A stretch of 64,000 nucleotides of DNA from a virus (IMGVR_UViG_3300032247_001693:23996-87995), one strand, 5' to 3'; counted from the stretch's first letter, positions 1,131 to 18,821 are shown. Numbers and translations are program-made. Notes: a model not told the origin generated them from the sequence alone.

Positions 1131-1208
1131 TAAAGTCTTGAGAAATAAGGACTTACGTCGAGCCGGGGCGCCCGGTCTAGCTCTAAGTCTTTTGTTTTCA
1201 ACACTTTA
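1131..1208. repeat. 78-bp four-arm element, copy 1
   Basis: taaagtctt-gagaaat-aaggactta N28 taagtcttt-tgttttc-aacacttta. Confidence 0.9.
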
Positions 1209-1213
1209 CGTCA

Positions 1214-1286
1214 GGTGGCTAGTGGGATTTGAACCCACAACCTACAGGATCACAACCTATCGCTCTGCCAATTGAGCTATAGCCAC
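1214..1286 (-). tRNA. tRNA-His(GTG)
   Basis: Acceptor GTGGCTA/TAGCCAC, loop TTGTGAT. Confidence 0.92.
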
Positions 1287-1288
1287 AG

Positions 1289-1375
1289 CGGAATATGAAA
1301 GAATCGAACTTTCACCGGTTTTACCCGGCCAATTTTAGCAAAATTGTGCAGCGAACCAGTATCTGCCTATATTCC
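1289..1375 (-). tRNA. tRNA-Ser(GCT)
   Basis: Loop TTGCTAA, long variable arm, acceptor GGAATAT/ATATTCC. Confidence 0.92.
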
Positions 1376-1393
1376 AAATTTTCTATCTATAAG

Positions 1394-1465
1394 CTGTGAG
1401 GGTCAGAGTCGGACTGACATTGACCAAATTAACAGTTTGGGGCATTACCATTATGCTACCTCACA
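1394..1465 (-). tRNA. tRNA-Asn(GTT)
   Basis: Loop CTGTTAA, acceptor TGTGAGG/CCTCACA; atypical T-loop TCCGACT. Confidence 0.88.
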
Positions 1466-1469
1466 ATAA

Positions 1470-1542
1470 ATACCCAGGTAGGATTCAAACCTACAACCTA
1501 GGGAACCAAAATCCCTTGCTCTATCAGTTAAGCTACTGGGTA
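1470..1542 (-). tRNA. tRNA-Gln(TTG)
   Basis: Loop TTTTGGT, acceptor TACCCAG/CTGGGTA. Confidence 0.88.
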
Positions 1543-1545
1543 AAA

Positions 1546-1755
1546 CTACCTATCTCTATGACTTCCACTATCTTTTTTACTTTCTCTCAAATATTTAGAA
1601 GCCTCAATCAACCAATACCCCATCATTTCTAGCTTTTCAGCCTCTTTACCAGTTAGGTAAGATGCTACATGAATAAAGGCATACTCAATTTTACCCTTAG
1701 AAACAATCTCTAAGGTTCCAAATGTTGGATCACTAAATTTTTCTGGTTTATCCAT
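1546..1755 (-). CDS. hypothetical protein
   Basis: ORF with GGAG RBS between tRNAs. Confidence 0.65.
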   Translation of the reverse strand: MDKPEKFSDPTFGTLEIVSKGKIEYAFIHVASYLTGKEAEKLEMMGYWLIEASKYLRESKKDSGSHRDR

Positions 1756-1770
1756 AAAGTCTCCACCTAA

Positions 1771-1843
1771 AGCCGATGATCAGAGTCGAACTGATGACAG
1801 GCAGTTTACAAAACTGCTACTCTACCAACTGAGTTACATCGGC
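1771..1843 (-). tRNA. tRNA-Thr(TGT)
   Basis: Loop TTTGTAA, acceptor GCCGATG/CATCGGC. Confidence 0.92.
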
Positions 1844-1893
1844 AACATACCTATTATAATCAATAACCTTGATCTCGCAAGTATTGTTGACGC

Positions 1894-2250
1894 TCACCGG
1901 AGCGTGTACGGGTTCGTCGTGGACGGGAATCGTGCGATCCGCTCCCGCTCAGGTGCGTATTGTGTCCCATTGGGAGTTCCCAACGCTTCTTGATCTTGAT
2001 TGTAACGTTCTCGTATTTGCGGCGGCTGGTCATACCATTTTCCATCTGTGTAATAGTACCAAATTTTGTCATTATTAGGATCATACGCTACATGGTACAG
2101 GTAATAGCGTACTGATTTTAACTGATGATCGCTCAATTGTTCTGTGGTCATTACCACAGGATGATTTTTTCTATAATCCTTATACTCACCATACACCAAC
2201 ATGCCCAAACCAATCAGGCCCGCCACTAGTTGTACCACATACTGCTTCAT
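1894..2250 (-). CDS. hypothetical protein with N-terminal membrane anchor
   Basis: Hydrophobic N-terminus, AAGGAG RBS. Confidence 0.6.
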   Translation of the reverse strand: MKQYVVQLVAGLIGLGMLVYGEYKDYRKNHPVVMTTEQLSDHQLKSVRYYLYHVAYDPNNDKIWYYYTDGKWYDQPPQIRERYNQDQEALGTPNGTQYAPERERIARFPSTTNPYTLR

Positions 2251-2275
2251 CTGTCAAGTTCTCCTTTAAGATATT

Positions 2276-2302
2276 TATCGGCAGTCTGGGGTGGATTCTT
2301 GA
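2276..2302 (-). promoter_or_regulatory. stand-alone sigma28-like promoter
   Basis: TCAAG-N15-GCCGATAA with no TTGACA in the usual position. Confidence 0.6.
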
Positions 2303-2415
2303 GGAATTGGGTAGTGAAACTCGTAAATTGGGTAGCAAATTGGGTAGTGGGGAGGGGTTTTCCCGAAAGGGCTAGTTTCCGATGACGGAAAATGTGGTTT
2401 TAAGGAAAACTGATG

Positions 2416-2493
2416 TAAGTCTATATGGGTTAAGGGTTTAGAGCGAATCCGGCCCGCCCCGCTCGCCCTAAGTCCTTATGGGACAAGGGTTTG
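2416..2493. repeat. 78-bp element, copy 2
   Basis: taagtctat-atgggtt-aagggttta N28 taagtcctt-atgggac-aagggtttg. Confidence 0.9.
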
Positions 2494-2504
2494 CGGCAAG
2501 TCGG

Positions 2505-2711
2505 CTATTTCCCGCCAACAGGATAGTTATAATTGTATGTATCTAGATCAATTTCTGTATGATCATATTCCTTATAACGTTTACATCTTTGGCAGTAGCA
2601 AGATAATGTGGTAAGGAAAGTACACTCTGTTGGTGTATGATTTGTGGTATTTTCACAATTAGCACACATAAATACATGTCTTACTGCACGATCATCAATT
2701 TGTCGCCACAT
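2505..2711 (-). CDS. small Cys-rich (putative zinc-binding) protein
   Basis: CxxC...CxCxxC. Confidence 0.65.
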   Translation of the reverse strand: MWRQIDDRAVRHVFMCANCENTTNHTPTECTFLTTLSCYCQRCKRYKEYDHTEIDLDTYNYNYPVGGK

Positions 2712-2720
2712 ATTAAACTC

Positions 2721-2951
2721 CTAAGAAATTGTCCATTTAGCTTGTCTTACTACTGCCTCTGTGGGCAACACGATAGTATCGGGTTGGGCTGTTGAATAAT
2801 CTCGAAATCCCCGTTCGTCAAGATAGAAGTTCTCATGAAGAGTATCATCTTTATTACTTTCCCATAGTACATCCGCCGCTGCTTCTAGTGGAGGTTTATC
2901 TGTACTATAGATTAGGTGAAGGGTGCCCGATTGAATGTAATACTTAGCCAT
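2721..2951 (-). CDS. hypothetical protein
   Basis: ORF, GGAG RBS. Confidence 0.7.
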   Translation of the reverse strand: MAKYYIQSGTLHLIYSTDKPPLEAAADVLWESNKDDTLHENFYLDERGFRDYSTAQPDTIVLPTEAVVRQAKWTIS

Positions 2952-3093
2952 TATTCATAATCTCCTCTAGATTGTTAATCAAAAGTTGAATATCTTTAGA
3001 AAAAGCGGGCTCTTGAGCTTGATTCAAATCTCTATACAAAGTTAGAGCATCTAGAATAATAAACATATCATGTTTTTCAATATGGTAGTTCAT
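2944..3093 (-). CDS. 49-aa hypothetical protein (below ORF-track cutoff)
   Basis: Hand translation MNYHIEKHDMF...; overlaps the next start. Confidence 0.55.
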   Translation of the reverse strand: MNYHIEKHDMFIILDALTLYRDLNQAQEPAFSKDIQLLINNLEEIMNNG

Positions 3094-3166
3094 TTTAACC
3101 TTTCAATGGTTGGAAAAAGTCACCCCTCTATGTCAATTTGGTGTATATAAACATAAGGAGATTACT

Positions 3167-3754
3167 ATGAAAAAAACGCCACAAGATCAGATAGATCGTA
3201 ATGTCAAATGGGCCAAAAACAACTCTAATAAGGTTCGTGAATACAAAAGAAAATATAAACAAGAACAAAAAGAATTATTGAAACAATATGTTAAAGAAAC
3301 TAAAGAGCATAATGGTTGTAAAATTTGTGGTTGTATAAATATTAATTGTTTAGATTTTCATCATCGTATTGACTCCAATAAAAAAGATACTATTTGTAAT
3401 CTCGTTAGACATGCTTATTCTTTATCTGTAGTTAAAGAAGAAATCGAAAAATGCGATATAATCTGCTCTAACTGTCATAGGACTCAACACTATACTGGTA
3501 GATATATGAGAAATAAAAAGAATATTAAAATTCATAATCTTAAACAGAGAAGTAAATGTTTACACTGCGGATGTAATAAAGTTGAATGTTTAGATTTTCA
3601 TCACTCATCAGACAAAACAGATGGCATAGGTTCGATGATTAGAGATAAAATGATATCTATAGAACAGTTAGAGACAGAGATAAAGAAATGTATTATACTC
3701 TGCTCTAACTGCCATAGGATACTTCATTCTAATGACAAGGGAAAAGAACATTAG
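3167..3754 (+). CDS. HNH endonuclease-like protein with two tandem HNH/Zn domains
   Basis: Two copies of CxxCG..CLDFHH..K..I...E.xKCxxxCSNCHR.xH; AGGAG RBS before ATG 3167. Confidence 0.85.
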   Translation: MKKTPQDQIDRNVKWAKNNSNKVREYKRKYKQEQKELLKQYVKETKEHNGCKICGCININCLDFHHRIDSNKKDTICNLVRHAYSLSVVKEEIEKCDIICSNCHRTQHYTGRYMRNKKNIKIHNLKQRSKCLHCGCNKVECLDFHHSSDKTDGIGSMIRDKMISIEQLETEIKKCIILCSNCHRILHSNDKGKEH

Positions 3755-4436
3755 GCTTATTTCCATCCAAACACATTTTACAGGCTTGTCCCTCTTTAGT
3801 ACCAGTACAAGTTACAAAATCCCGACCCTTACGAATTTCTGGACATGTTACAAACTTCTCACCGTGTAATACAACCAGTTTTGGTAGTGCTTTTCTCCAG
3901 ATATCAGCCTTAATCTTACTCTTAGGCCGCTTAGGAGCAATCTTTTGGTCACTATCGCACCATGCGAATTTAGTAAATCCCTTACTCTTAGCAAGATTCA
4001 TATCGTGTTCATTATGAATACTAGCAAAGATAGAAAAATACTTACTAAGTGCCACCAGCCTTGAATCATACACATGAGTATAAAACCACATATCGGGTAG
4101 TTCGATACCATCAGAAATAATACTCTCACAGGCCCATGTTACATTCTCTACAAATTCAACGTCAAGTTCCCCATTTTTGTACCAATCCCCACGTTCCATG
4201 AAACGAATACTTTTATCTTTTTTGATAGCGTCAAGTATCATGGCCCGAATACGATTCTTTTCAGTAATCATATTAACAAAACCAGCCACCCGAGCATTTT
4301 TATACTGTCTCTCTGTTGCTTCCGCATAACAGCCATTATCTAGAAATACGCAAGATGATGGACAGGTGTCGCCAACTGGCCTACTAACTACCAGACAATT
4401 CTTACCTAACTTATCGTTACCGTTTGCAACTTTCAT
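3729..4436 (-). CDS. Cys-rich phage protein, GP88-like (possible Fe-S/radical-SAM-related fold)
   Basis: GNxK..SRPVGDTCPxxC.....CYA N-terminus, C-terminal C..C..C..C..H; family from memory only. Confidence 0.55.
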   Translation of the reverse strand: MKVANGNDKLGKNCLVVSRPVGDTCPSSCVFLDNGCYAEATERQYKNARVAGFVNMITEKNRIRAMILDAIKKDKSIRFMERGDWYKNGELDVEFVENVTWACESIISDGIELPDMWFYTHVYDSRLVALSKYFSIFASIHNEHDMNLAKSKGFTKFAWCDSDQKIAPKRPKSKIKADIWRKALPKLVVLHGEKFVTCPEIRKGRDFVTCTGTKEGQACKMCLDGNKPNVLFPCH

Positions 4437-4462
4437 GATCTTTTTCTCCCTTGTGTCCACTG

Positions 4463-4503
4463 ATTATACAGTAGATATCGGCACTGTCAAGGGGGATTCT
4501 TTA
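4463..4503 (-). promoter_or_regulatory. overlapping sigma70 and sigma28-like promoter
   Basis: TTGACA-N16-TATAAT; TAAAG-N16-GCCGATA. Confidence 0.7.
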
Positions 4504-4512
4504 AAAAATCTT

Positions 4513-4528
4513 TGGCATGATATTTGCT
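4513..4528 (+). promoter_or_regulatory. sigma54 -24/-12-like site
   Basis: TGGCAT-GATAT-TTGCT. Confidence 0.6.
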
Positions 4529-4583
4529 AGTGTTAAAATGTGTAAGCTAGGGCCAACATTGTTGGTTTAGCTGGAACTTTACC

Positions 4584-4661
4584 TAAGTCTATATTCTATA
4601 AGGACTTACAACAAACCGGGGCGCCCGCCCTTGAGCTAAGTCTTTTAGCAGCAAGGGTTTA
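4584..4661. repeat. 78-bp element, copy 3
   Basis: taagtctat-attctat-aaggactta N28 taagtcttt-tagcagc-aagggttta. Confidence 0.9.
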
Positions 4662-4671
4662 GGTCATTAGG

Positions 4672-4947
4672 TCAACCACTAGGATAATCGGGCGGAACTG
4701 GTCGGCTAGGCTTTTTTGTTGGCCTATCCATCACTCCATCATCAATCATCCACCACGGAGCAGTCAGCCTATCAATGAAGCCCAAAGATTCATGTTTGAG
4801 GATTACATCTAGCTCTGCTGGATCACCGGGAGAAGAGCAATACTCTCCACAACCAACTCCAATACTGTGACCATAATACCAGATACCCTGACCATCTTCG
4901 GGTTGCTTATCAAAAAAACTGATCCACTGATTTTCAATAGCAGTCAT
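4672..4947 (-). CDS. hypothetical protein
   Basis: ORF; start at GGAG-preceded ATG. Confidence 0.65.
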   Translation of the reverse strand: MTAIENQWISFFDKQPEDGQGIWYYGHSIGVGCGEYCSSPGDPAELDVILKHESLGFIDRLTAPWWMIDDGVMDRPTKKPSRPVPPDYPSG

Positions 4948-5155
4948 AAATATCTCCATCAATTTCGTCAATGCCTAAACTCGCCCCAACACCATAATCC
5001 CCGTCAGCTGTCCTAGCAAGCCGGGACTCAATAAAATCCTGAGCATCTGCTAAATCTTGAAATTTTAGCGGGGCGTCAGGATGAAAAGCGATCCATCCAT
5101 CTTTGCCAATTCGTTCCCCATCATAAGGCCCGCCACAAACAATCACGACAAACAT
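4934..5155 (-). CDS. hypothetical protein
   Basis: ORF, GGGAG RBS, after promoter. Confidence 0.7.
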   Translation of the reverse strand: MFVVIVCGGPYDGERIGKDGWIAFHPDAPLKFQDLADAQDFIESRLARTADGDYGVGASLGIDEIDGDIYDCY

Positions 5156-5178
5156 TTTAGTTTCTCCCTTGTTGTCTC

Positions 5179-5219
5179 ATTCTACATTCTATATCGACAA
5201 TGTCAAGGGGTAGTCTTGA
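5179..5219 (-). promoter_or_regulatory. overlapping sigma70 and sigma28-like promoter
   Basis: TTGACA-N16-TAGAAT; TCAAG-N16-GTCGATA. Confidence 0.7.
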
Positions 5220-5236
5220 AAATTTCAGGATAGGCG

Positions 5237-5314
5237 TAAAGTCTTTAAGAATAAGGACTTAGGAGAAATGGGGCCGCCCGCTCTTGACGTAAGTCTTTAC
5301 GTTCTAAGGCTTTA
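5237..5314. repeat. 78-bp element, copy 4
   Basis: taaagtctt-taagaat-aaggactta N28 taagtcttt-acgttct-aaggcttta. Confidence 0.9.
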
Positions 5315-5359
5315 GGGAAAGTCTCGCATAGGGATTCTATAATAGCTTGTTGCATTTTT

Positions 5360-5596
5360 TCAAGGCTTGTCATATGCAAAGTATCCATGTACTACAATGA
5401 TATTGTCATTTTCATCGAAAAAAGTAAAACTTCCATCTGCCAAACCAACAGCATTCGCTTGATGATGTTTTTGAAACAAACAGTTACCCTCAAGTTTCAT
5501 AAATACAGTTCCACTCTCATTTTCAGTTACGAATATTTCACCGGAATTAATATCTGTGAATTTTTCAACTTCGACTGGTCTTGGTATAATTTTCAT
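5360..5596 (-). CDS. hypothetical protein, probable paralog of 5599-5805
   Basis: Shared F.D/T...G..F...K.E...NA..L/M.DGS...F pattern. Confidence 0.7.
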   Translation of the reverse strand: MKIIPRPVEVEKFTDINSGEIFVTENESGTVFMKLEGNCLFQKHHQANAVGLADGSFTFFDENDNIIVVHGYFAYDKP

Positions 5597-5598
5597 TT

Positions 5599-6686: not shown

Positions 6687-6714
6687 ATTATACTCTTTTT
6701 ATCGACCATGTCAA
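6687..6714 (-). promoter_or_regulatory. sigma70-type promoter with internal GTCGATA
   Basis: TTGACA-N16-TATAAT. Confidence 0.75.
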
Positions 6715-6754
6715 CCCCACAGCTAGAGAAAATCTAAAAATTTTGAGAATGCTC

Positions 6755-6832
6755 TAAGTGGTTATTCTGTAAGGACTTACGGCGATCCGGGGCGCCCGCC
6801 CTATCCCTAAGTTCTTTAAGGATAAGGACTTA
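6755..6832. repeat. 78-bp element, copy 5
   Basis: taagtggtt-attctgt-aaggactta N28 taagttctt-taaggat-aaggactta. Confidence 0.9.
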
Positions 6833-6835
6833 CGA

Positions 6836-7015
6836 CTAGTAGTCTTCGGCCTCAATAAACTCATCACATTCATAATTAGAGTTGGATAGAACTTCCGGGC
6901 GATATTTGCTCAACACTTTATCAGCACATTTCCCACAAACTCTAGCAAGGGGAATTCCACGGGCATCAGTTTCCCACCAACTACTCTCACCAGACCCACA
7001 ATTACAAACTTTCAT
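6836..7015 (-). CDS. 59-aa Cys-containing protein
   Basis: Hand translation MKVCNCGSG..DARGIPLARVCGKC; stop 3 bp from element 5. Confidence 0.65.
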   Translation of the reverse strand: MKVCNCGSGESSWWETDARGIPLARVCGKCADKVLSKYRPEVLSNSNYECDEFIEAEDY

Positions 7016-7853: not shown

Positions 7854-7896
7854 ATTCTACACAACTCTTATCGTCCTGTCAAGAGGCTAATCTTAA
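7854..7896 (-). promoter_or_regulatory. overlapping sigma70 and sigma28-like promoter
   Basis: TTGACA-N17-TAGAAT; TTAAG-N16-GACGATAA. Confidence 0.7.
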
Positions 7897-7913
7897 GAAA
7901 AAATAGATTTCTG

Positions 7914-7991
7914 TAAACTGTTGACAAATAAGGACTTACATCAAAACGGGGCGCCCGTCCTCGTCGCAAGTCCTTATGCGACAAGGGTTTG
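7914..7991. repeat. 78-bp element, copy 6
   Basis: taaactgtt-gacaaat-aaggactta N28 caagtcctt-atgcgac-aagggtttg. Confidence 0.9.
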
Positions 7992-8000
7992 GGTCAAATA

Positions 8001-8420: not shown

Positions 8421-8448
8421 ATTATACTCTAATATCGACCAATGTCAA
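8421..8448 (-). promoter_or_regulatory. sigma70-type promoter with internal GTCGATA
   Basis: TTGACA-N16-TATAAT. Confidence 0.7.
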
Positions 8449-8468
8449 GCTAATTTTTATAGAAATCC

Positions 8469-8546
8469 TAAATCCTCATAGAATAAGGACTTACATCAAA
8501 ACGGGGCGGCCCGGCCCACCCTAAGTCCTTATTAGATAAAGACTTA
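8469..8546. repeat. 78-bp element, copy 7
   Basis: taaatcctc-atagaat-aaggactta N28 taagtcctt-attagat-aaagactta. Confidence 0.9.
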
Positions 8547-8575
8547 GAGCAGGTGGGTAGCTTGTTGATGAGAAA

Positions 8576-9022: not shown

Positions 9023-9062
9023 ATTATACAGTGTTATCGGTAAAAGTCAAGCGGTAGCTTTA
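9023..9062 (-). promoter_or_regulatory. overlapping sigma70 and sigma28-like promoter
   Basis: TTGACT-N16-TATAAT; TAAAG-N16-ACCGATAA. Confidence 0.7.
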
Positions 9063-9081
9063 AGAATTTTTTGAGTTGACA

Positions 9082-9159
9082 CAACTCGTTGAAAAATAAA
9101 GACTTATGTCGAGCCGGGGCAGCCTGCCTTTCTCTAAGTCTTTTAGAGATAAGGGCTTA
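9082..9159. repeat. 78-bp element, copy 8
   Basis: caactcgtt-gaaaaat-aaagactta N28 taagtcttt-tagagat-aagggctta. Confidence 0.9.
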
Positions 9160-9168
9160 TGGCTTTCT

Positions 9169-9459: not shown

Positions 9460-9502
9460 ATTCTACTACACTAGTATCGACAAGTCAATAGCCTCTTCTT
9501 GA
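9460..9502 (-). promoter_or_regulatory. overlapping sigma70 and sigma28-like promoter
   Basis: TTGACT-N17-TAGAAT; TCAAG-N16-GTCGATA. Confidence 0.7.
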
Positions 9503-9518
9503 AAAAACCTTTTTGATG

Positions 9519-9596
9519 TAACTCGTTGAAAAATAAGGACTTACGATAAACCGGGGCGCTCGGCCTTGATCTAAGTCCTTTAGATTCAAGACCTTA
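9519..9596. repeat. 78-bp element, copy 9
   Basis: taactcgtt-gaaaaat-aaggactta N28 taagtcctt-tagattc-aagacctta. Confidence 0.9.
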
Positions 9597-9598
9597 CG

Positions 9599-10000
9599 TC
9601 AAATGTTGGCGTAGACCCGTTTTCCCCTAGTGACCAGTTTATCAAAAATTTTGCAGTCGATATCTTCGTCGCTATTTTCGTAGTGCCAATACTTTTGCAC
9701 CTTGGGGTCATATACTACCATTTTCATCTCTTTAATATCAGTAGCTCCACAGCTAGCAATATCGCTCAAGATAAAACCATAGCATTTAATCCACCCACAA
9801 ACATCTCGTTTTTGAGACTCGAAAACTTTAGCAGCTTTCTTGGGGCGATTAATAAGCTGGCATTCGCTCATCAAAATCTCATAATGTTCGGGATTCCAAT
9901 ATGATACGGTCATAAGGTTTCCATTATGGTAACTCTTCATCTGCCAGTGCTTATAATGTTCACCTGCACCCAGATGGAATCTTACTTCGTAATGTCTCAT
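9599..10000 (-). CDS. hypothetical protein
   Basis: ORF; stop 2 bp from element 9. Confidence 0.7.
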   Translation of the reverse strand: MRHYEVRFHLGAGEHYKHWQMKSYHNGNLMTVSYWNPEHYEILMSECQLINRPKKAAKVFESQKRDVCGWIKCYGFILSDIASCGATDIKEMKMVVYDPKVQKYWHYENSDEDIDCKIFDKLVTRGKRVYANI

Positions 10001-10318: not shown

Positions 10319-10359
10319 AGTATACCTCTATTATCGACTTTGTCAAGTGGTCAGCTTGA
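10319..10359 (-). promoter_or_regulatory. overlapping sigma70 and sigma28-like promoter
   Basis: TTGACA-N16-TATACT; TCAAG-N16-GTCGATAA. Confidence 0.65.
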
Positions 10360-10377
10360 GAAAATTTCATACTGACG

Positions 10378-10455
10378 TAAAGTGTTGAGAAATAAGGACT
10401 TAGGGCGAAAGCGGGCGCCCCCGTTCGCCCTAAGTGCTTACACACAAAGGGTTTA
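10378..10455. repeat. 78-bp element, copy 10
   Basis: taaagtgtt-gagaaat-aaggactta N28 taagtgctt-acacaca-aagggttta. Confidence 0.9.
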
Positions 10456-10465
10456 CGGTTAGCTC

Positions 10466-12226: not shown

Positions 12227-12267
12227 ATTCTACACCTATCATCGGTAGTTGTCAAGCCCCCTCTTTA
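12227..12267 (-). promoter_or_regulatory. overlapping sigma70 and sigma28-like promoter
   Basis: TTGACA-N17-TAGAAT; TAAAG-N16-ACCGATG. Confidence 0.65.
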
Positions 12268-12285
12268 AGAAAAATGCGTTTGATG

Positions 12286-12363
12286 TAAGTTGTTGAGAAA
12301 TAAACACTTAGGACAAATCGGCCCGCCCGCTTTCGCCCTAAGTCCTTTATGGACAAGGGTTTG
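12286..12363. repeat. 78-bp element, copy 11
   Basis: taagttgtt-gagaaat-aaacactta N28 taagtcctt-tatggac-aagggtttg. Confidence 0.9.
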
Positions 12364-12372
12364 CGGTTAGTC

Positions 12373-12941: not shown

Positions 12942-12969
12942 ATTCTACTAAGTATATCGACAAGGTCAA
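12942..12969 (-). promoter_or_regulatory. sigma70-type promoter with internal GTCGATA
   Basis: TTGACC-N16-TAGAAT. Confidence 0.65.
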
Positions 12970-13013
12970 GAGCATCCCCTTAAATATTTTTCTTGCAATA
13001 TCTTAAGGTAGCG

Positions 13014-13091
13014 TAAAGTCTTGAAGAATAAGGACTTACGTCAAAAGCGGGCGCCCGCCCTAGCTGCAAGTCTTTTGCAGATAAGGACTTA
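13014..13091. repeat. 78-bp element, copy 12
   Basis: taaagtctt-gaagaat-aaggactta N28 caagtcttt-tgcagat-aaggactta. Confidence 0.9.
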
Positions 13092-13094
13092 CGT

Positions 13095-13466
13095 TCAGTC
13101 TTCAATTTCGCGGAAAATTGAGATTTCCAACCCAGATGCCATAATGGCAGCATACTGTTCGACCATAGCTGCCACTCTGTCAGATGATCCCGGCTTGCCA
13201 ACTGGCAGCAACATTAGGTCATCAGCGTTTTTCAGTCTCTTATTGACTTTTTCTTTCTTGCTGGTAGAAATTTTCTTCAAGGCTTTTTGATTGAACTTCA
13301 AAACTTTTTCCGTAACCAACACCCTCTTTCGGGTGGCTAGTTCACAAGAGTAGGTTTCATCCTCGATTACCAGATGGTCTGCAATCTCAACCATATCGGG
13401 AATCGCTAGACCCAGGAAACAATTGCGGGCCTGCCGCTTTGCTCTCTCAACAATCTCAAATTTCAT
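13095..13466 (-). CDS. hypothetical protein, paralog of 15010-15327
   Basis: MKFxIVExAKRQARNCFLGxAIP...EKVLKFNxKALK shared. Confidence 0.75.
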   Translation of the reverse strand: MKFEIVERAKRQARNCFLGLAIPDMVEIADHLVIEDETYSCELATRKRVLVTEKVLKFNQKALKKISTSKKEKVNKRLKNADDLMLLPVGKPGSSDRVAAMVEQYAAIMASGLEISIFREIED

Positions 13467-13745: not shown

Positions 13746-13751
13746 GTCATC

Positions 13752-13791
13752 ATTATACACTCTTATCGGCATTTGTCAATAGCGATCTTGA
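13752..13791 (-). promoter_or_regulatory. overlapping sigma70 and sigma28-like promoter
   Basis: TTGACA-N16-TATAAT; TCAAG-N16-GCCGATAA. Confidence 0.7.
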
Positions 13792-13809
13792 AGAATTTTG
13801 ATATTGATC

Positions 13810-13887
13810 TAAGTTGTTGAAAAATAAGGACTTACGACGATCCGGGGCGCCCGCCCTTGCCGCAAGTCCTTTGAGGCTAAGGGTTTA
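13810..13887. repeat. 78-bp element, copy 13
   Basis: taagttgtt-gaaaaat-aaggactta N28 caagtcctt-tgaggct-aagggttta. Confidence 0.9.
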
Positions 13888-14157
13888 GGAGCGATGTAAT
13901 TTTGGGTCGTTTTTTGAGCCACGATAGAAACGATCACGGGAAGCTTCCGCCATCGGGCAGGAAAATCCCATTTTGTTTCTCCACCGGAGCAAACTTTTGA
14001 TAGCTGCCCCAGTTTCACCATTAACTACATCTTCTGTCACAACAATAGTACCGTCTTCAACTTTGACCAGAGCAACTAGCGTCTTACCCTGTTGTGGACG
14101 CACCACAATTGTCAAGCCATTAGAGGCCCGATCTATTTCGCATTGTCGAAGTTTCAT
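13885..14157 (-). CDS. hypothetical protein
   Basis: ORF; stop codon lies in the last arm of element 13. Confidence 0.6.
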   Translation of the reverse strand: MKLRQCEIDRASNGLTIVVRPQQGKTLVALVKVEDGTIVVTEDVVNGETGAAIKSLLRWRNKMGFSCPMAEASRDRFYRGSKNDPKLHRS

Positions 14158-14166
14158 AGGCCACCA

Positions 14167-14337: not shown

Positions 14338-14459
14338 TACCAACTCCTTTTTAGGTTACTTACTACTATATCGACATTTTACCCTGTAGATTCCAGTTTG
14401 TCAAGAAAAATCTTTCCTTGCAAAACCTACAGATTAACCCATCTTCAACAGACCCCCTA

Positions 14460-14509
14460 TTCTCGCTGACTATACCACATAGCCGCAAATCCGGAGGATT
14501 AGGAAAAAC
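14460..14509. repeat. ~48-bp dispersed repeat, copy 3 of 3
   Basis: TCTCGCTGACTATACCACATAGCCGCAAATCCGGAGGATTAGGAAAAAC. Confidence 0.75.
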
Positions 14510-14852
14510 AATGAAGACCCCCCCTTCAGACCCAAGCCACCGCCCAAAACCCCCAAACCTCCCAGACTACCCAACTACCACAACCACCCCAACTACCCCA
14601 GACTTCCTAGAATTCATATCCTGTATAGCCTTCACAGTATACGGGAGCATAGTTCACCTAATTGATAAGGATTGCAAAGATAATTCCGCAAATCAGACAA
14701 ATCCCCAAAATCGCCCTATCTTTCCTACTCATCCTATTTCCCCTATCTTCTATTAGTTTTCCAATCTGCTTCTATTACCATATATCGTCCATTTTACCAT
14801 CCAAACTTGAACTTGTCAAACCTTAAAATTTCGTAAGGTAGATCATTCGTCG

Positions 14853-14930
14853 TAAGTGCTTGAAGAATAAAGACTTACGTCAAGGTGGGGCGGCCCGTTT
14901 TGCTCTAAGTCCTTATTTTTCAACACTTTA
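14853..14930. repeat. 78-bp element, copy 14
   Basis: taagtgctt-gaagaat-aaagactta N28 taagtcctt-atttttc-aacacttta. Confidence 0.9.
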
Positions 14931-15009
14931 TGTCAAGTGCTAAAACTAGTGGACAAAAGACCACCACCCCCACCAGAGAGGTAGTGTACATGCTTATCCC
15001 CCGTTGGGG

Positions 15010-15327
15010 TTATGCAACCTCCCCAAAGGCGGAGAGTTCCAACCGAGCCACCACACCATATTGAGCGGCCAGCAGTTCAACACGCTCACGCGAACCGGGG
15101 AGAGTACCACCAGCAGAAATCATGAGATCATCACCCCTACTCATGCGGGGGTCATTCTTGACCTTTGCAACCTTGCCAGCATTCTTCAAGGCTTTGCGAT
15201 TGAACTTCAAAACCTTCTCAACCACCACCATCTCTCCGTCGATGTTCTTAGCTTCGGAAGGGATAGCGATTCCCAAAAAGCAGTTACGGGCTTGACGCTT
15301 GGCATTTTCTACGATTGCAAACTTCAT
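15010..15327 (-). CDS. hypothetical protein, paralog of 13095-13466
   Basis: Start refined (GAGG RBS); shared N-terminus. Confidence 0.75.
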   Translation of the reverse strand: MKFAIVENAKRQARNCFLGIAIPSEAKNIDGEMVVVEKVLKFNRKALKNAGKVAKVKNDPRMSRGDDLMISAGGTLPGSRERVELLAAQYGVVARLELSAFGEVA

Positions 15328-15569
15328 TTTCACATCCTCAAGGTTTCTCATTCTCATACCCCTATTATACAGGGGAGTTTTGGAATTGCAAGCACAAAGT
15401 TTCCTTAAATTTTCGTAAGGTAGTCGAAAGCTCTGGAAACCGCAGTATCCAAAAACCCCCGCACAATCTCCCCACCAGCCTTGAAAACTTCGTGTACGGT
15501 GTAGGTGAGGAATGCACAAAAGGTCAGTATACAGGTGATCATTACGATATCGTAGAGCATGTTTTCCTC

Positions 15570-15791
15570 TTAAGCTACTTTGATGAAAATTTCGACTACG
15601 CCAGACTTCGTTGACAGTGTGACCAGAAATTTCCGACCGCTACCATCTTCAATCCTCATACCATTTACCAAACCAATGAATGGCATATCTACTGAATCAT
15701 ACAGCAGAATTTCATACCGACCACGCATAGCCTCTACAATATCGCTCAAAAGATAGACCTTGCGAATCGAGCGGGGTACTACAGTGTTCAT
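15570..15791 (-). CDS. hypothetical protein
   Basis: ORF, AAGGA RBS. Confidence 0.7.
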   Translation of the reverse strand: MNTVVPRSIRKVYLLSDIVEAMRGRYEILLYDSVDMPFIGLVNGMRIEDGSGRKFLVTLSTKSGVVEIFIKVA

Positions 15792-15820
15792 TTTTCTTTT
15801 TCCTTTTTCTCTACTGGTTA

Positions 15821-15855
15821 TATCGTCATTATACAGGGGAAACTTTAGTTGTCAA
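15821..15855 (-). promoter_or_regulatory. sigma70 promoter with downstream-shifted sigma28-like promoter
   Basis: TTGACA-N16-TATAAT; TAAAGTTT-N12-GACGATA. Confidence 0.7.
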
Positions 15856-15858
15856 GTC

Positions 15859-16062
15859 CTATTCACCATCATATCCGACATACCAAATCTCACCTTTTTC
15901 ATCAGCCATTTTCTTGAATCCCTTTTTTGCCATGTGACGATCTTGAATGAAATTATCTACAATTCCAAAAGCCTGAGCCATCAGCCAGAAGCCTACCGTC
16001 ATGGAAAGATAGATGGTGGCAATCAGAGCGATCCAGCAGAGAGCAATTATGAGGCTTGTCAT
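15859..16062 (-). CDS. small membrane protein
   Basis: Long hydrophobic N-terminal segment. Confidence 0.65.
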   Translation of the reverse strand: MTSLIIALCWIALIATIYLSMTVGFWLMAQAFGIVDNFIQDRHMAKKGFKKMADEKGEIWYVGYDGE

Positions 16063-16098
16063 TTTCTTATTCCTGTTTTTTCTTTTCCCTACGTCTTA

Positions 16099-16133
16099 TA
16101 TCGTCATTATACAGGCTTTTCTTTAGCCGTCAA
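16099..16133 (-). promoter_or_regulatory. sigma70 promoter with downstream-shifted sigma28-like promoter
   Basis: TTGACG-N16-TATAAT; TAAAG-N15-GACGATA. Confidence 0.7.
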
Positions 16134-16187
16134 GCATATTTTCCAGAATTTTCGGAATATAATTTCATGCCAAACATAATTTTTCTT

Positions 16188-16222
16188 TGGCATGTTATTT
16201 GCTCTTTGCAAAAGTTGTGCCA
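16188..16222. promoter_or_regulatory. head-to-head pair of sigma54 -24/-12-like sites
   Basis: +TGGCATGTTATTTGCT, 3-bp gap, -TGGCACAACTTTTGCA. Confidence 0.65.
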
Positions 16223-16247
16223 AACTCAAAAAAATATGGATTCGACG

Positions 16248-16325
16248 TAAGTGCTTGAAGAATAAGGACTTAGAGATAGCCGGGGCGGGCCGATTCGACG
16301 TAAGTCCTTTGGTGGTAAGGGTTTA
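16248..16325. repeat. 78-bp element, copy 15
   Basis: taagtgctt-gaagaat-aaggactta N28 taagtcctt-tggtggt-aagggttta. Confidence 0.9.
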
Positions 16326-16426
16326 CGTCAAGTGGCCTTTTCGCATCCCTCGTCCGTGGGGGTAGTTCCACCATAAGGCAGATCTTCCCCCCGGCTGGGG
16401 AGTGTACGTTTGGTTACCCCCCAAAA

Positions 16427-16657
16427 TCAGTAGTAGATAAAATCGTTGACGATATTTCCTGCAATGTCAACCCCGATGAATTCATCCTCATCATCGCATG
16501 GGAAAAAATTCCTGATTTCCATTCCACTACCAAAAGCTTCAACCAAAAGAGCCCCACCAATACGGGCGATTCCCACCAGAGTATCGGGAGAGGAAGAATC
16601 TTCCCCATAGAGCAATTCATTCAGTTCGGCACGGGTGTTGATGGTGATCATTTTCAT
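16427..16657 (-). CDS. hypothetical protein, paralog of 18292-18519
   Basis: MITINxRxELNExLYG....DTLVGxARxGG.LL.EA...DxxIYY shared. Confidence 0.75.
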   Translation of the reverse strand: MKMITINTRAELNELLYGEDSSSPDTLVGIARIGGALLVEAFGSGMEIRNFFPCDDEDEFIGVDIAGNIVNDFIYY

Positions 16658-16694
16658 TTTTCCTTTTTCTACTGGTCTTTTCTCTTGTGTTTCA

Positions 16695-16723
16695 ATTATA
16701 CAGAGTATATCGTCCCCTGTCAA
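16695..16723 (-). promoter_or_regulatory. sigma70-type promoter with internal GACGATA
   Basis: TTGACA-N17-TATAAT. Confidence 0.75.
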
Positions 16724-16923
16724 GCCCCCACCTTAGAAAAATATCGGACAAATTCCAGCCGAATATCTTCACGATTGAAAGGGAATTTTCCGTTGTAGGT
16801 ATCGTTCCACATCTTCTCTACCATTGGCATAGCATCCATCCAAGTTTCGGCTGTTACGAATCCGAAACTCCACTCGCCACGGGAGGTTGCGACCAAAATC
16901 TCAAATTGAATTTCATTTTTCAT
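16720..16923 (-). CDS. hypothetical protein
   Basis: ORF; start refined. Confidence 0.65.
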   Translation of the reverse strand: MKNEIQFEILVATSRGEWSFGFVTAETWMDAMPMVEKMWNDTYNGKFPFNREDIRLEFVRYFSKVGA

Positions 16924-16962
16924 TTTCATTTCCTTCTCTTGTGTTTTCCCTGTCATGCTTTC

Positions 16963-16990
16963 ATTATACAGAGTATATCGGCAGTGTCAA
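16963..16990 (-). promoter_or_regulatory. sigma70-type promoter with internal GCCGATA
   Basis: TTGACA-N16-TATAAT. Confidence 0.7.
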
Positions 16991-17045
16991 GAAAATTCTG
17001 GAATATTTTTGAAATATAATTTCGTGCCAAATAAAATTTTTCTTG

Positions 17046-17080
17046 TGGTATGATATTTGCTAGTAGCGAATGCTGTGCCA
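17046..17080. promoter_or_regulatory. head-to-head pair of sigma54-like sites
   Basis: +TGGTATGATATTTGCT, 3-bp gap, -TGGCACAGCATTCGCT. Confidence 0.6.
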
Positions 17081-17140
17081 AAGTTTCCTTACAATTTCGT
17101 AAGGTTGGCGCAACCCCATCAGTTTAGCTAATACTAGACG

Positions 17141-17218
17141 TAAGCTCTTGAGAAATAAGGACTTAGGTCGAGCCGGGGCGCCCCGTTTTGACGCAAGTCC
17201 TTTGGTGGCAAGACTTTA
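17141..17218. repeat. 78-bp element, copy 16
   Basis: taagctctt-gagaaat-aaggactta N28 caagtcctt-tggtggc-aagacttta. Confidence 0.9.
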
Positions 17219-17296
17219 CGTCGAATGGGTTTTGAGTAGTGAACAACCATACAGACCACCCCCCAAATAGGGTAGTGTACAGATGATCACCCCGCC

Positions 17297-17530
17297 TTAG
17301 ATATACTTCTTGACTCCCCACTTGTAAGCAGTGATACGCTTACCCTCAATTCTCACCTTCCCAGTCTTCTTACTAGTGATCCTCAATTCTGCCTTGCTAC
17401 CATCAGCACAATCAGCACAACGGTAGTAGACATCAAATCGATCATCCTTGCTCCAATTGATCACGATCATGCTGACATCCTCATTACGCAGGATGAAATT
17501 TGTGGTAGTACGATTGATGCTGCTATTCAT
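17297..17530 (-). CDS. hypothetical protein
   Basis: ORF after promoter at 17567-17595. Confidence 0.65.
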   Translation of the reverse strand: MNSSINRTTTNFILRNEDVSMIVINWSKDDRFDVYYRCADCADGSKAELRITSKKTGKVRIEGKRITAYKWGVKKYI

Positions 17531-17652
17531 GGGATCGAATCCTAGTAGGTTAATGGGTCTCTCACCATTCTACATTCATTATCGTCTATCGTCAAGCCTC
17601 CCCAATAAAAATTCTTCAAATATAATCTTGTGCCAAAAAACCTTTTTCTATT

Positions 17653-17687
17653 TGGTATACCATTTGCTCTATGCAAGTATCGTGCCA
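17653..17687. promoter_or_regulatory. head-to-head pair of sigma54-like sites
   Basis: +TGGTATACCATTTGCT, 3-bp gap, -TGGCACGATACTTGCA (full consensus). Confidence 0.65.
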
Positions 17688-17712
17688 AACCGTGAAAAAT
17701 TTTCATTTGACG

Positions 17713-17790
17713 TAAGTGTTTGATACATAAGGACTTAGAGCTATCCGGGGCCGCCCGATTTGACGTAAGTCCTTTATTCATAAGGGTTTA
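17713..17790. repeat. 78-bp element, copy 17
   Basis: taagtgttt-gatacat-aaggactta N28 taagtcctt-tattcat-aagggttta. Confidence 0.9.
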
Positions 17791-17882
17791 CGTCAAGCCT
17801 GTGTTCACTACTGTACATACCAACACATACGCCCCCCATTAGGGGAGTGTACGCTTGGCTACCCTGCCATGTGGGGGTTGTG

Positions 17883-18092
17883 TCAGCCCCCCTCATCTTC
17901 GGGCGACCAGTCTACATCGTCAGGATCAACACCATCAAAAGCGTCAAGATCATAAACGTCCCCATCCTCAAAATTCTCAATATCCTCATCACCATCCTCA
18001 AACACCACATCACAATGTTCCCAGCAGCAGGGACACAACTCAAGATCGGCCACATCTATCACCACCTCTACACCACAGCATTCGCTCTTCAT
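17883..18092 (-). CDS. small acidic protein with N-terminal Cys cluster
   Basis: SECCG...CPCCWEHC then D/E-rich tail; AAGGA RBS. Confidence 0.7.
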   Translation of the reverse strand: MKSECCGVEVVIDVADLELCPCCWEHCDVVFEDGDEDIENFEDGDVYDLDAFDGVDPDDVDWSPEDEGG

Positions 18093-18291
18093 TGTCTTAT
18101 TCCTTTTCCTGAGCCTGCAATTCGATAACCAATTTCCAGCACACATCAAACGTCACATGACGGGCCACTACCTTGCCACCGTACCACACTTCATATCGGT
18201 CGCCCGTGCGATTTGAAGTATTCCAGTAGATCATTTTTTTGCTCATTGAATTATTGTAGGGAAATTTTCTAGCCCTGTCAACCCCCCAAAA

Positions 18292-18519
18292 TCAGTAGTA
18301 GATGCAATCGTCAACCACGATTCCGTTCGCGTCAACTTCAATCCATTCACCTTCATCTCCCATTGGGAAGAAACCAGTGATCTGGCGGAAATCAGTTTCC
18401 AAAGCTTCGGAGAGCAATTCTCCACCAAAACGGGCGACACCAACCAAAGTGTCATAATGTTCGGTAGTCCCACCATAAAGGATTTCGTTCAGTTCGGTGC
18501 GATTGTTGATGGTGATCAT
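18292..18519 (-). CDS. hypothetical protein, paralog of 16427-16657
   Basis: Start refined; shared sequence. Confidence 0.75.
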   Translation of the reverse strand: MITINNRTELNEILYGGTTEHYDTLVGVARFGGELLSEALETDFRQITGFFPMGDEGEWIEVDANGIVVDDCIYY

Positions 18520-18562
18520 TTTCGTTGTCCTTTTTTCTATCGTTCTCTTCTCTTCTTCTACC

Positions 18563-18602
18563 ATTATACAGACTCTATCGACGCTTGCAAGCAAAATCTT
18601 GA
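18563..18602 (-). promoter_or_regulatory. overlapping sigma70 and sigma28-like promoter
   Basis: TTGCAA-N16-TATAAT; TCAAG-N15-GTCGATA. Confidence 0.65.
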
Positions 18603-18655
18603 AAATTTTCAAAATATAATTTCGTACCAAATAAAAAAATTTTTTTCTATCCGAA

Positions 18656-18724
18656 TGGCACACAATTTGCTCTATGCAAAAGTTATGCCAAACAAAATTA
18701 TTCCGTTTTGGCACAAAATTTGCT
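18656..18724. promoter_or_regulatory. three sigma54-like sites (head-to-head pair plus one)
   Basis: +TGGCACACAATTTGCT, -TGGCATAACTTTTGCA, +TGGCACAAAATTTGCT. Confidence 0.65.
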
Positions 18725-18743
18725 AGCGCGGATCGATTTGACG

Positions 18744-18821
18744 TAAAGTGTTGATATATAAGGACTTAGAACGAGCGGGGGCGTCCGGATTTGACGTAAG
18801 TCCTTTAGATATAAGGGTTTA
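18744..18821. repeat. 78-bp element, copy 18
   Basis: taaagtgtt-gatatat-aaggactta N28 taagtcctt-tagatat-aagggttta. Confidence 0.9.

Follow-up and report, generated by a model that had tools for sequence, protein, structure and literature searches.

The early genes of an uncultured lake phage are parted into about twenty units by a rigid 86-bp palindrome made of four boxes. At a probability of roughly 55%, we read this element as a docking platform on duplex DNA for a putative sequence-specific, probably oligomeric protein that would bind or bend DNA, and also as a seam at which gene units are swapped. Directly observed are the anatomy of the element and its rigid geometry, its phasing with promoters, the recombination junctions, and a lack of both covariation and any recombinase.

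Anatomy and distribution of the element

A fuzzy pattern combined with a position-weight scan located 18 copies in the window, the whole 64,000-nucleotide stretch that was analyzed, and 21 in the contig, where the three extra copies lie just upstream of the window. The same scans found no copy in the remaining 45 kb of the window, and a looser pattern gave 6 matches where 0.02 were expected from shuffles. All copies lie toward the minus (coding) strand of the small early genes, with a gene or a tRNA ending at the left edge of the element or within it. The repeated array reported in a preliminary description of this DNA was recovered; center-to-center distances in the window (437 to 2168 bp) agree with the units of 0.36 to 2.1 kb given there. 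No published description of the element was found.

Each module runs from the preceding gene's stop codon through four boxes with a GC-rich core and an A/T-rich tract to a near-consensus sigma70 promoter. The boxes (M1 to M4) are near-palindromes of the form TAAG-NN-CTTA, centered at element positions 24.5, 39.5, 77.5, and 92.5. Spans listed below comprise element positions 16 to 101 (86 bp), whereas the 78-bp element described previously extends from the TAA of the first box to the TTA of the fourth. The contig (G000, 60% complete) was compared with relatives G001 to G004, three of them complete (204 to 244 kb) and one 91% complete.

1127..1212, minus strand: element copy 1, M1 to M4 round a GC-rich core; tRNA-His 2 nt upstream
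2412..2497, minus strand: element copy 2, not followed by any strong promoter that could be found
4580..4665, minus strand: element copy 3, from the pattern/weight scan
5233..5318, minus strand: element copy 4, at the junction of gene families 23 and 3, where G001 to G003 lack the element
6751..6836, minus strand: element copy 5, from the pattern/weight scan
7910..7995, minus strand: element copy 6, from the pattern/weight scan
8465..8550, minus strand: element copy 7, from the pattern/weight scan
9078..9163, minus strand: element copy 8, from the pattern/weight scan
9515..9600, minus strand: element copy 9, TGA stop of the upstream gene at element position 15
10374..10459, minus strand: element copy 10, from the pattern/weight scan
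12282..12367, minus strand: element copy 11, from the pattern/weight scan
13010..13095, minus strand: element copy 12, from the pattern/weight scan
13806..13891, minus strand: element copy 13, M1 TAA serving as stop of the 90-aa gene 13885-14157
14849..14934, minus strand: element copy 14, orientation ambiguous because the outer arms on both sides are M4-type
16244..16329, minus strand: element copy 15, part upstream of M2 replaced relative to L028
17137..17222, minus strand: element copy 16, right half matching that of the single L028 element
17709..17794, minus strand: element copy 17, left half matching that of the single L028 element
18740..18825, minus strand: element copy 18, last in the array

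Alignment of 150 copies produced 94 columns with zero gaps, although part of the rigidity in core length among relatives comes from ascertainment through the fixed-gap search, and other contigs have cores of 46 and 48 nt. In this alignment, every box had AA and TT dinucleotides that were invariant or almost so. In 13 of 18 cases the upstream gene stops no more than 11 bp from the 78-bp core or runs into it, with tRNA-His at 1214 included (11 of 18 had been counted before), and stop codons cluster at element positions 14-15, 20, and 7-8 in all relatives. As the preliminary description had stated, all cargo is co-oriented except for one gene:

3110..3754, plus strand: HNH endonuclease gene (phrog_3106, E=2e-33), the sole cargo on the opposite strand

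Helical register with early promoters

Strict matches to TTGACA-N16/17-TATAAT in the contig fall on the minus strand in 32 of 33 cases, and a sigma70-like promoter lies no more than 150 nt downstream of 20 of the 21 elements, in keeping with the claim that the units carry their own promoters. The following were located past copies in the window.

1082..1109, minus strand: sigma70-type promoter, 17 nt past copy 1
4463..4490, minus strand: sigma70-type promoter, 89 nt past copy 3
5179..5206, minus strand: sigma70-type promoter, 26 nt past copy 4
6687..6714, minus strand: sigma70-type promoter, 36 nt past copy 5
7854..7882, minus strand: sigma70-type promoter, 27 nt past copy 6
8421..8448, minus strand: sigma70-type promoter, 16 nt past copy 7
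9023..9050, minus strand: sigma70-type promoter, 27 nt past copy 8
9460..9488, minus strand: sigma70-type promoter with 2 mismatches, 26 nt past copy 9
10319..10346, minus strand: sigma70-type promoter, 27 nt past copy 10
12227..12255, minus strand: sigma70-type promoter, 26 nt past copy 11
12942..12969, minus strand: sigma70-type promoter with 2 mismatches, 40 nt past copy 12
13752..13779, minus strand: sigma70-type promoter, 26 nt past copy 13
14791..14819, minus strand: sigma70-type promoter, 29 nt past copy 14

Of the strong promoters in the array, about half are internal and not preceded by an element, and none of those in the contig's first 21 kb has an element either; therefore, the element is not a general requirement for promoters. 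The earlier picture of a unit as promoter, genes, and element holds for the array and its order but does not apply to every unit, since so many strong promoters are internal.

Element-to-promoter distances in the contig include 16, 17, 26 (four times), 27 (four times), 29, 36, 40, and 41 nt. Among 104 non-redundant copies, 85 have the −35 hexamer at 15 to 17, 25 to 29, 35 to 39, 46 to 49, or 57 to 61 nt from the element end, giving five bands about 10.6 nt, or about one helical turn, apart; distances of 18 to 22, 32 to 34, and 42 to 45 nt did not occur in this set. In short, the next sigma70 promoter is placed 16, 26-27, or 37-38 bp from the element. Such phasing could partly stem from the inheritance of a few module types and not from selection on spacing. 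Relative to the start site, the center of the promoter-proximal box falls at approximately −61, −71, −82, and −92, with an A/T-rich tract between the box and the −35 hexamer. Because this box is whole helical turns away (about −61, −71, −82), a bound protein and host RNA polymerase would share one face of the helix.

Comparable arrangements are found at class I activator sites, for example those of CRP at −61.5, −71.5, −82.5, and −92.5, and at phased upstream A-tracts or UP elements. The likeness lies in a site center whole helical turns from the promoter (85 of 104 distances), on one helix face, with an A/T-rich tract before the −35 hexamer. CRP sites differ in that their sequence is unrelated to the boxes and consists of one dyad, whereas here there are four boxes and a GC core and the factor is putative. 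In phage phi29, the regions between promoters A2c, A2b, and A3 carry fixed-spacing inverted repeats ahead of early promoters; they are bound by p4, a small regulator of the phage, which bends the DNA and makes contact with RNA polymerase. The present phage has a comparable series of regularly spaced inverted repeats before its early promoters, but phi29 has one such region against about twenty here, sequence and spacing are different, and the factor here is putative and may be host-encoded.

From these sequence features we infer that a protein binds the element, what kind of protein it is, and in which sense it acts on transcription. A Pfam scan of twenty early proteins found no DNA-binding domain, and neither an HU/IHF homologue nor a sigma54 activator was found encoded by the phages. 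In sequence, box M4 (CAA-N4-TTA) is similar to the core consensus of IHF. Allowing up to 3 mismatches, the dyad TAAGTCCTTA-N5-TAAGGACTTA was present at 92 sites versus 60 for the control in 301 Planctomycetota genomes, a modest 1.5-fold enrichment in genomes that are mostly much higher in G+C than the phage, and at 12 sites versus 50 for the control in 201 Pseudomonadota genomes. The Planctomycetota enrichment makes a host-encoded factor possible.

Conserved sequence and the question of folding

The palindromic look of the element is kept by conserved sequence and not by compensatory change. No base-pair covariation was found in the 150 aligned copies, where 69.8% of cells were paired versus 70.5% in column-shuffled alignments, with a second fold giving 72.1% versus 72.1%. 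Mutual information in the same copies revealed no long-range pairs, and the top pairs were all adjacent columns. As covariation is lacking in 150 copies, the element is not an attC-like folded site.

These data also bear on whether the element works as RNA, with an M2/M3 hairpin and GC-rich apex at the 3′ end of early transcripts serving as an intrinsic terminator, an mRNA stabilizer, or an RNase III-type processing site. The element does begin at or a few nucleotides from the upstream stop codon, is self-complementary (about −27 kcal/mol versus −19 in shuffles), and in this genome has T-rich spacers after M3, e.g., TTATTTCT and TTATTTTT. Moreover, PeSLs, which are palindromes directly before a sigma70-like early promoter that are repeated among small early open reading frames, occupy exactly the same position (PMC4122927). 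However, the paired cells match the shuffled expectation, a G·G mismatch is the commonest state beside the boxes (80 of 157 copies), and the strands are equally stable, with mean folding energies of −27.1 kcal/mol for the coding strand and −27.0 for the opposite one (no strand preference). Conservation of the T-rich tail does not extend to relatives G001, G003, and G004, a consensus terminator scan called none of the elements, and a role in RNA would leave M1, M4, and the promoter phasing without function. Action as RNA is therefore unlikely in our estimation, although some terminator activity may be present, given the T-rich spacer past M3 in this genome. A search of positions 1 to 20000 against Rfam 15 (E≤0.1) returned tRNAs only, with no family match for the element.

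Exchange of gene units at the modules

Relatives that are at least 91% complete have 13 to 18 copies each, all within a single early stretch of 15 to 20 kb. Gene order is mostly colinear over the five diverged genomes, and about 17 gene families are common to all five arrays in mostly identical order. Gene adjacency is conserved in 176 of 287 cases (61%) across an element versus 216 of 251 (86%) elsewhere. Homology breakpoints lie within 60 nt of an element center 50 times, against 21 expected (2.4-fold), and 64% of breakpoints are more than 150 nt away from any element. Breaks occur at element positions 12-16, 34-36, 80-84, and 100-102, at box edges and in or beside both spacers; in addition to these junctions, which form at least four classes, one crossover lies within the GC core.

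In the relative L028, a chimeric element (5451-5544) matches window copy 17 in its left half and copy 16 in its right half, and it stands exactly where the 572-bp unit that separates copies 16 and 17 is missing. Such a chimera would be the expected remnant of mini-circle excision between tandem modules. The 90-aa gene at 13885-14157 is also absent from L028, where homology stops at the left edge of copy 13, and in copy 15 spacer 1 and the preceding gene are replaced. Among the compared relatives, whole units have been relocated, and in G001 a 164-bp element-plus-promoter module separates gene families 9 and 34, the same genes overlapping in G003 and G004. Gain or loss between the same two genes concerns the element together with its promoter.

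Integrons combine an IntI tyrosine recombinase, a folded and variable attC, promoterless cassettes on a common promoter, a single precise crossover, and cassettes excised as circles. Several features recall a site of this or another site-specific kind, at which a dedicated recombinase would excise and insert cassettes: an imperfect palindrome follows each co-oriented unit, the four boxes form two inverted pairs whose alternating orientation resembles attC R″-L″...L′-R′ with two core-type sites and 7-bp spacers, homology breaks in or beside both spacers, and unit-sized indels and relocations occur. Nevertheless, in the five genomes G000 to G004 there was nothing above the cut-off for tyrosine recombinases (PF00589, Phage_integrase) and no match for serine recombinases (PF00239, Resolvase) or the RAYT/Y1 transposase (PF01797, Y1_Tnp). 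Conserved sequence, fixed length, and missing structural covariation are the opposite of attC, and the several junction classes and the GC-core crossover do not amount to one cleavage point. Units come with promoters of their own, the array is mostly syntenic with cargo largely conserved among relatives and not a free pool, and most breakpoints are remote from elements. We consider such a site extremely unlikely, and the integron analogy of the preliminary description is not upheld. A single 24-bit, sub-threshold PF00589 match was seen in G002, distant from the array.

Very unlikely as well is a selfish miniature mobile element of the REP/BIME, REPIN, or MITE kind that has spread over early intergenic sites. 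Enterobacterial REP/BIME sequences, including the IHF-binding RIP/RIB, are chromosomal, dispersed, unphased with promoters, and mobilized by RAYT. Like them, the element is a multicopy, extragenic palindrome just past stop codons, REP/BIME being bound by DNA-bending proteins, and the presence of the module between the same genes varies among relatives. Yet within one genome copies are only about 60 to 78% alike outside the boxes, so there was no recent burst, and the RAYT/Y1 transposase was not found. Copies occupy one stretch per genome in a single orientation and in register with a promoter that is gained or lost along with them; chromosomal location, dispersal, absence of phasing, and RAYT mobilization are not seen here.

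PeSLs of T4-type phages were reportedly described by Arbiol et al. in 2010. Comeau et al. (2014) reported them in the T4-type phages RB49/phi1, PST/T4, and nt-1/KVP40 (PMC4122927). The present modules are similar in that a palindrome and a sigma70-like early promoter recur among small early genes whose function is unknown and are concentrated in a single plastic region, that indels, replacements, and displacements between close relatives terminate in or next to modules, and that the mechanism fits homologous exchange between repeats. They differ in that a PeSL consists of a short GC stem-loop followed by a T run, whereas the 86-bp element has four rigidly spaced boxes and shows neither covariation nor strand bias; in their phasing with the promoter by helical turns, which PMC4122927 does not describe for PeSLs; in a mostly conserved gene order; and in having relatives of 204 to 244 kb, with no cultured relative found by tblastn against 50,697 cultured phage records.

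Overall, the preliminary interpretation is partly supported. The PeSL-like seams that it proposed are borne out by the L028 chimera, the moved units, the gain and loss of modules, and the adjacency and breakpoint counts; fixed synteny across divergent relatives, which it had named as a refutation, was encountered half-way, the order being mostly fixed and the exceptions largely unit-sized.

In the docking-platform reading, a composite intergenic control module would have the element as its upstream half. A protein docked there could stimulate or gate the early unit that follows and perhaps block read-through out of the preceding one. About twenty similar modules in direct orientation within 20 kb would, as a side effect and in the manner of PeSLs in T4-type phages, serve as seams for ordinary homologous exchange, and exchange within a conserved box or within the GC core would delete, duplicate, replace, or relocate whole gene units.

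Early array and its repeated element

The window covers positions 23996-87995 of an IMG/VR virus contig of 87,995 bp judged about 60% complete. It holds small minus-strand genes of 41-44% G+C over window positions 1-19 kb and, from about 21 kb, large late genes on the plus strand with 30-36% G+C, among which are a terminase-like protein of 1030 aa, a portal, and one ORF exceeding 4772 aa. Such a gap in G+C between the early part (1-20000) and the late part (20000-64000) is unusually big for a single genome. Megablast with the first 20 kb found no close cultured phage (tRNA-Lys was the only match), and tblastn with the portal protein gave no match among 50,697 phage records. One exact-pattern scan of IMG/VR returned 45 related loci, most with several element copies at intervals of about 1 kb. 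The genomes of three relatives (238, 244, and 205 kb) are complete and have terminal repeats; that of a fourth, at 128 kb, is 91% complete. A pilin-like ORF just beyond the array is missing from L028, a contig from a close relative.

Genes in and around the early array (window coordinates)
315-1843, minus strand: nine tRNA genes
3110-3754, strand opposite to the array: HNH endonuclease gene
12373-12669, minus strand: 98-aa ORF, mostly short repeats coding runs of acidic residues
19357-20466, minus strand: 369-aa ORF with a pilin-like N-terminus (weak match to PHROG pilin)
22439-23434, plus strand: nucleotide-sugar epimerase gene

Repeat finding, a fuzzy pattern, and a position-weight scan agreed on 18 element copies in the window, from 1127 to 18825, and the array proposed in the preliminary description is thus real. 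The same scans located three further copies on the contig just upstream of the window and none elsewhere on it. Across this contig and the 45 related loci, 232 copies had weight-matrix scores of 32-113; as no score fell between 25 and 32, element membership is unambiguous. On the coding (minus) strand the consensus reads acT.gaC-gTAAacCCTTg-(5 nt)-tAAGGACTTAg-GgC.AggggGGCcGgCC..gtTtGaC-GTAAGTCCTTA-T.t..-cAAcgacTTAcG. Each of its four boxes, M1 to M4, is a near-palindrome TAAG-NN-CTTA with invariant or almost invariant AA and TT dinucleotides; successive box centres are separated by 15, 38, and 15 nt, and the whole unit has two-fold symmetry around a GC-rich core. The 78-bp core recognized earlier begins with the TAA of M1 and ends with the TTA of M4. 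A literature search for the box sequence found unrelated primers only and no published description.

All 21 copies of this contig share a single length; the search pattern had a fixed core length, so that ascertainment accounts for part of the rigidity seen across relatives. Scanning with a variable gap recovered additional contigs with a core 1 nt shorter or longer, and one contig mixes lengths. At about 9880-9975 of the oriented array of relative G001 (junction of ORF families 64 and 15), a recognizable copy has a core length altered by an indel. This copy was missed by the fixed-geometry scan, and the counts of 13-18 copies in each of the four relatives, all inside one 15-20 kb stretch, are therefore lower bounds. 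A core-pattern scan of genome contigs gave 16 matches, roughly the chance number, with real arrays only in L063 (JBJTKU010000149.1, from a Candidatus Planktophila MAG; seven full elements) and L076 (JBILVZ010000050.1, from a Methylococcaceae MAG; two full elements), both short. These two are probably phage contigs picked up by binning, not host DNA.

Much of the gene layout proposed for the array was borne out. Copy spacing is 437-2168 bp, which fits the unit sizes proposed, and 13 of 18 upstream genes (tRNA-His counted) overlap the 78-bp core or stop no more than 11 bp from it, compared with 11 of 18 in the preliminary description. Among 195 cases from all relatives, the upstream ORF has its stop codon at element positions 14-15 in 54, at 7-8 in 20, and at 20 in 11, a pile-up indicating that the left edge of the element often provides the stop codon. 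The lone gene on the opposite strand is an HNH endonuclease, as had been noted. The claim that units carry their own promoters also held, with a sigma70-like promoter within 150 nt downstream of 20 of the 21 elements; 32 of 33 strict TTGACA-N16/17-TATAAT promoters lie on the minus strand. Internal promoters with no element make up about half of the array's strong promoters, so the "promoter, genes, element" unit is a simplification.

Several further motifs accompany the early promoters. Many have a conserved CGATA in the spacer (TTGACA-N4/5-CGATA-N7-TATAAT), a clade-specific signature. Sequences fitting the sigma54 consensus TGGCAC-N5-TTGCW occur between element and sigma70 promoter in the last four units and one other; they often stand head to head, forming a 35-bp palindrome, and relatives have either orientation. 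Some units have an extra palindrome, CCTTAC-N6-GTAAGG, which reuses the box half-sites and separates the element from the -35 hexamer. The last four units (16244-18825) are tandem paralogues whose promoter, leader, and gene segments are 71-81% identical, which indicates unit duplication.

Promoter-associated sequences (window coordinates)
1082-1109, 4463-4490, 8421-8448: examples of promoters with CGATA
4513-4550, 16188-16225, 17046-17083, 17653-17690, 18656-18693: sigma54-like sequences
about 12970-13005 and 14820-14848: CCTTAC-N6-GTAAGG palindrome, also found in relatives G001 and G003

Hairpin and RNA readings of the element

Folding of the boxes was assessed in 150 copies aligned without gaps. 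For a long hairpin (M1 with M4, M2 with M3), 69.8% of cells were paired versus 70.5% when partners were shuffled among sequences, and for a two-hairpin fold (M1 with M2, M3 with M4) the values were 72.1% and 72.1%. The top mutual-information pairs were neighbouring columns in every case, and the commonest state next to the inner boxes is a G.G mismatch. Predicted stability is alike on both strands (-27.1 and -27.0 kcal/mol). A canonical intrinsic terminator is unlikely, as a consensus terminator scan did not call the elements, there is no strand bias, and the T-rich spacer after M3, a possible terminator tail here, is limited to this genome and not retained in relatives. Likewise, a known RNA family was rejected, since no Rfam family matches the element. 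We conclude that the element is probably not an RNA or single-strand hairpin. With conserved palindromic boxes but neither covariation nor strand bias, self-complementarity is probably a by-product; a duplex site recognized by a symmetric protein would be expected to show conservation of this kind.

Promoter phasing and candidate binding proteins

Over all copies, distances from the element end to the -35 hexamer peak at 16-17, 26-27, 37-38, 47-49, and 59-60 nt. When copies at least 80% alike were collapsed, 85 of 104 distances of up to 66 nt fell inside five bands about 10.6 nt apart, and none fell at 18-22, 32-34, or 42-45 nt. The distances on this contig are 16, 17, 26 (four times), 27 (four times), 29, 36, 40, and 41 nt. 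The centre of M4 is thereby placed near -61, -71, -82, or -92 relative to the start site, and the intervening DNA includes an A/T-rich tract. Class I activators such as CRP use positions -61, -71, -82, and -92, and the M4 centres thus occupy similar positions upstream of the start site. Inheritance of a few module types may contribute to this phasing; that inheritance is its only source is argued against by the intervening sequences, which differ widely among copies of equal distance. The primary role of the element is most likely that of a putative phased protein-docking site belonging to the next promoter.

Candidates for a docking protein were sought among the phage proteins. A Pfam scan of 20 early proteins found no DNA-binding domain, and most had no family at all; ten of the 20 were also scanned against PHROGs. 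The only named matches in these scans were DUF7227/GP88, DUF7448, DUF932, and a phosphoribosyltransferase-like domain. A phage-encoded HU/IHF or sigma54 activator was rejected as the binding protein, as these phages encode no HU/IHF homologue and no sigma54 activator.

Among bacterial genomes, the dyad TAAGTCCTTA-N5-TAAGGACTTA was counted with up to three mismatches, with the reversed dyad as a control. Counts were 92 sites versus 60 for the control in 301 Planctomycetota genomes and 12 versus 50 in 201 Pseudomonadota genomes. These counts may point to a host-type operator, but are suggestive rather than proof of the host or the factor. The phage is far poorer in G+C than most of the Planctomycetota genomes. 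Several of the best matches sit in G+C-rich DNA, unlike the phage; in one case a GC-rich stretch comes next, with the sequence TGGCAC-N5-TTGCT lying 30 nt downstream. DNA similarity between the phage and the planctomycete genomes richest in the dyad was confined to two matches of about 70 nt at 77-78% identity, too weak as a host link; both pair the sugar-epimerase gene of the window with one from G029, a Planctomycetota genome of low G+C that has five copies of the box dyad.

Exchange of units at the element

From BLAST segments and element alignment, the window at 11418-24000 and L028 are 83-98% identical, with seven interruptions by indels or replacements. Copies 16 and 17 of the window, 572 bp apart, correspond to one element in L028, whose left half (M1, spacer ATGAATA, M2) matches copy 17 and whose right half (core through M4 and beyond) matches copy 16. 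As read from the aligned sequences, this is a crossover in the GC core that removed or added exactly one unit. At copy 15, sequence upstream of M2 has been replaced up to the -35 hexamer of the promoter at 16695-16723, and at copy 13 the left edge adjoins a 90-aa gene that the window has and L028 lacks, its stop codon being the TAA of M1. No element borders the other events, at 11642-12021, 18248-18513, and the pilin-like gene (19379-20579).

Over all loci, high-identity matches have 283 non-redundant ends, of which 50 are no more than 60 nt from the centre of an element versus 21 expected, and the promoter zone just downstream has 36 versus 18 expected. These breakpoints agree with a role of the element as a seam; 64% of them are more than 150 nt from any element. 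Matches from the gene side end mostly at element positions 80-84, and those from the promoter side at 12-16 or 34-36. Several junction classes at box edges would be expected for exchange within short conserved sequences.

Synteny, which had been named as evidence against shuffling if fixed, is largely but not wholly kept: ORF families of the five arrays, about 17 of them common to all, run largely in the same order, yet units move and modules vary. Shared neighbour genes remain adjacent in 61% of cases with an element between them versus 86% without, counts that are not independent because three of the five genomes are closely related. Family 12, a single-gene unit, follows family 13 in four genomes and family 20 in this one, where families 13 and 14 are separate units located elsewhere. 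In G001, a 164-bp element-plus-promoter separates genes of families 9 and 34 that overlap in relatives G003 and G004. Modular shuffling was thus supported by a chimeric element, unit indels, relocations, and breakpoint enrichment, in the sense of the promoter-early stem-loops (PeSLs) of T4-type phages, which behave comparably as seams for exchange (PMC4122927); both are regulatory repeats serving as seams of modular exchange.

The analogy to integrons did not survive. Pfam models of tyrosine recombinases, serine recombinases, and Y1 transposases gave no match that passed the cut-off, either in this contig or in the four relatives with completeness of 91% or more, whereas the same searches gave matches in control genomes. 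Site-specific recombination of the integron type was rejected on these searches in five genomes, the covariation tests, and the multiple junction classes; the units' own promoters and largely conserved order also count against the analogy. A MITE or REP element was rejected because no transposase was found and the copies are divergent. A cassette-like layout need not mean an integron-like mechanism.

A tentative account, to which we assign a probability of roughly 0.3, is that an entire clade of uncultured freshwater jumbo phages copied a Planctomycetota-type host-factor operator as a rigid enhancer-and-insulator module. Standing upstream of some twenty early promoters, at a distance of one to five helical turns, the four-box modules would let one host transcription factor set the output of the entire host-takeover region, and the same modules would provide homology for the exchange of early units between phages.

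Early regions of large phages are rich in small genes of unknown function, and their control and evolution are little understood. The element offers a concrete handle, being sequence-defined, rigid, promoter-phased, and present at about 20 copies per genome (232 copies over 46 scanned contigs). Any protein that binds the element would be a master control point for early infection in this clade, which has no cultured members, and might give a clue to the host. The PeSL idea is extended beyond T4-type phages, with direct junction evidence.
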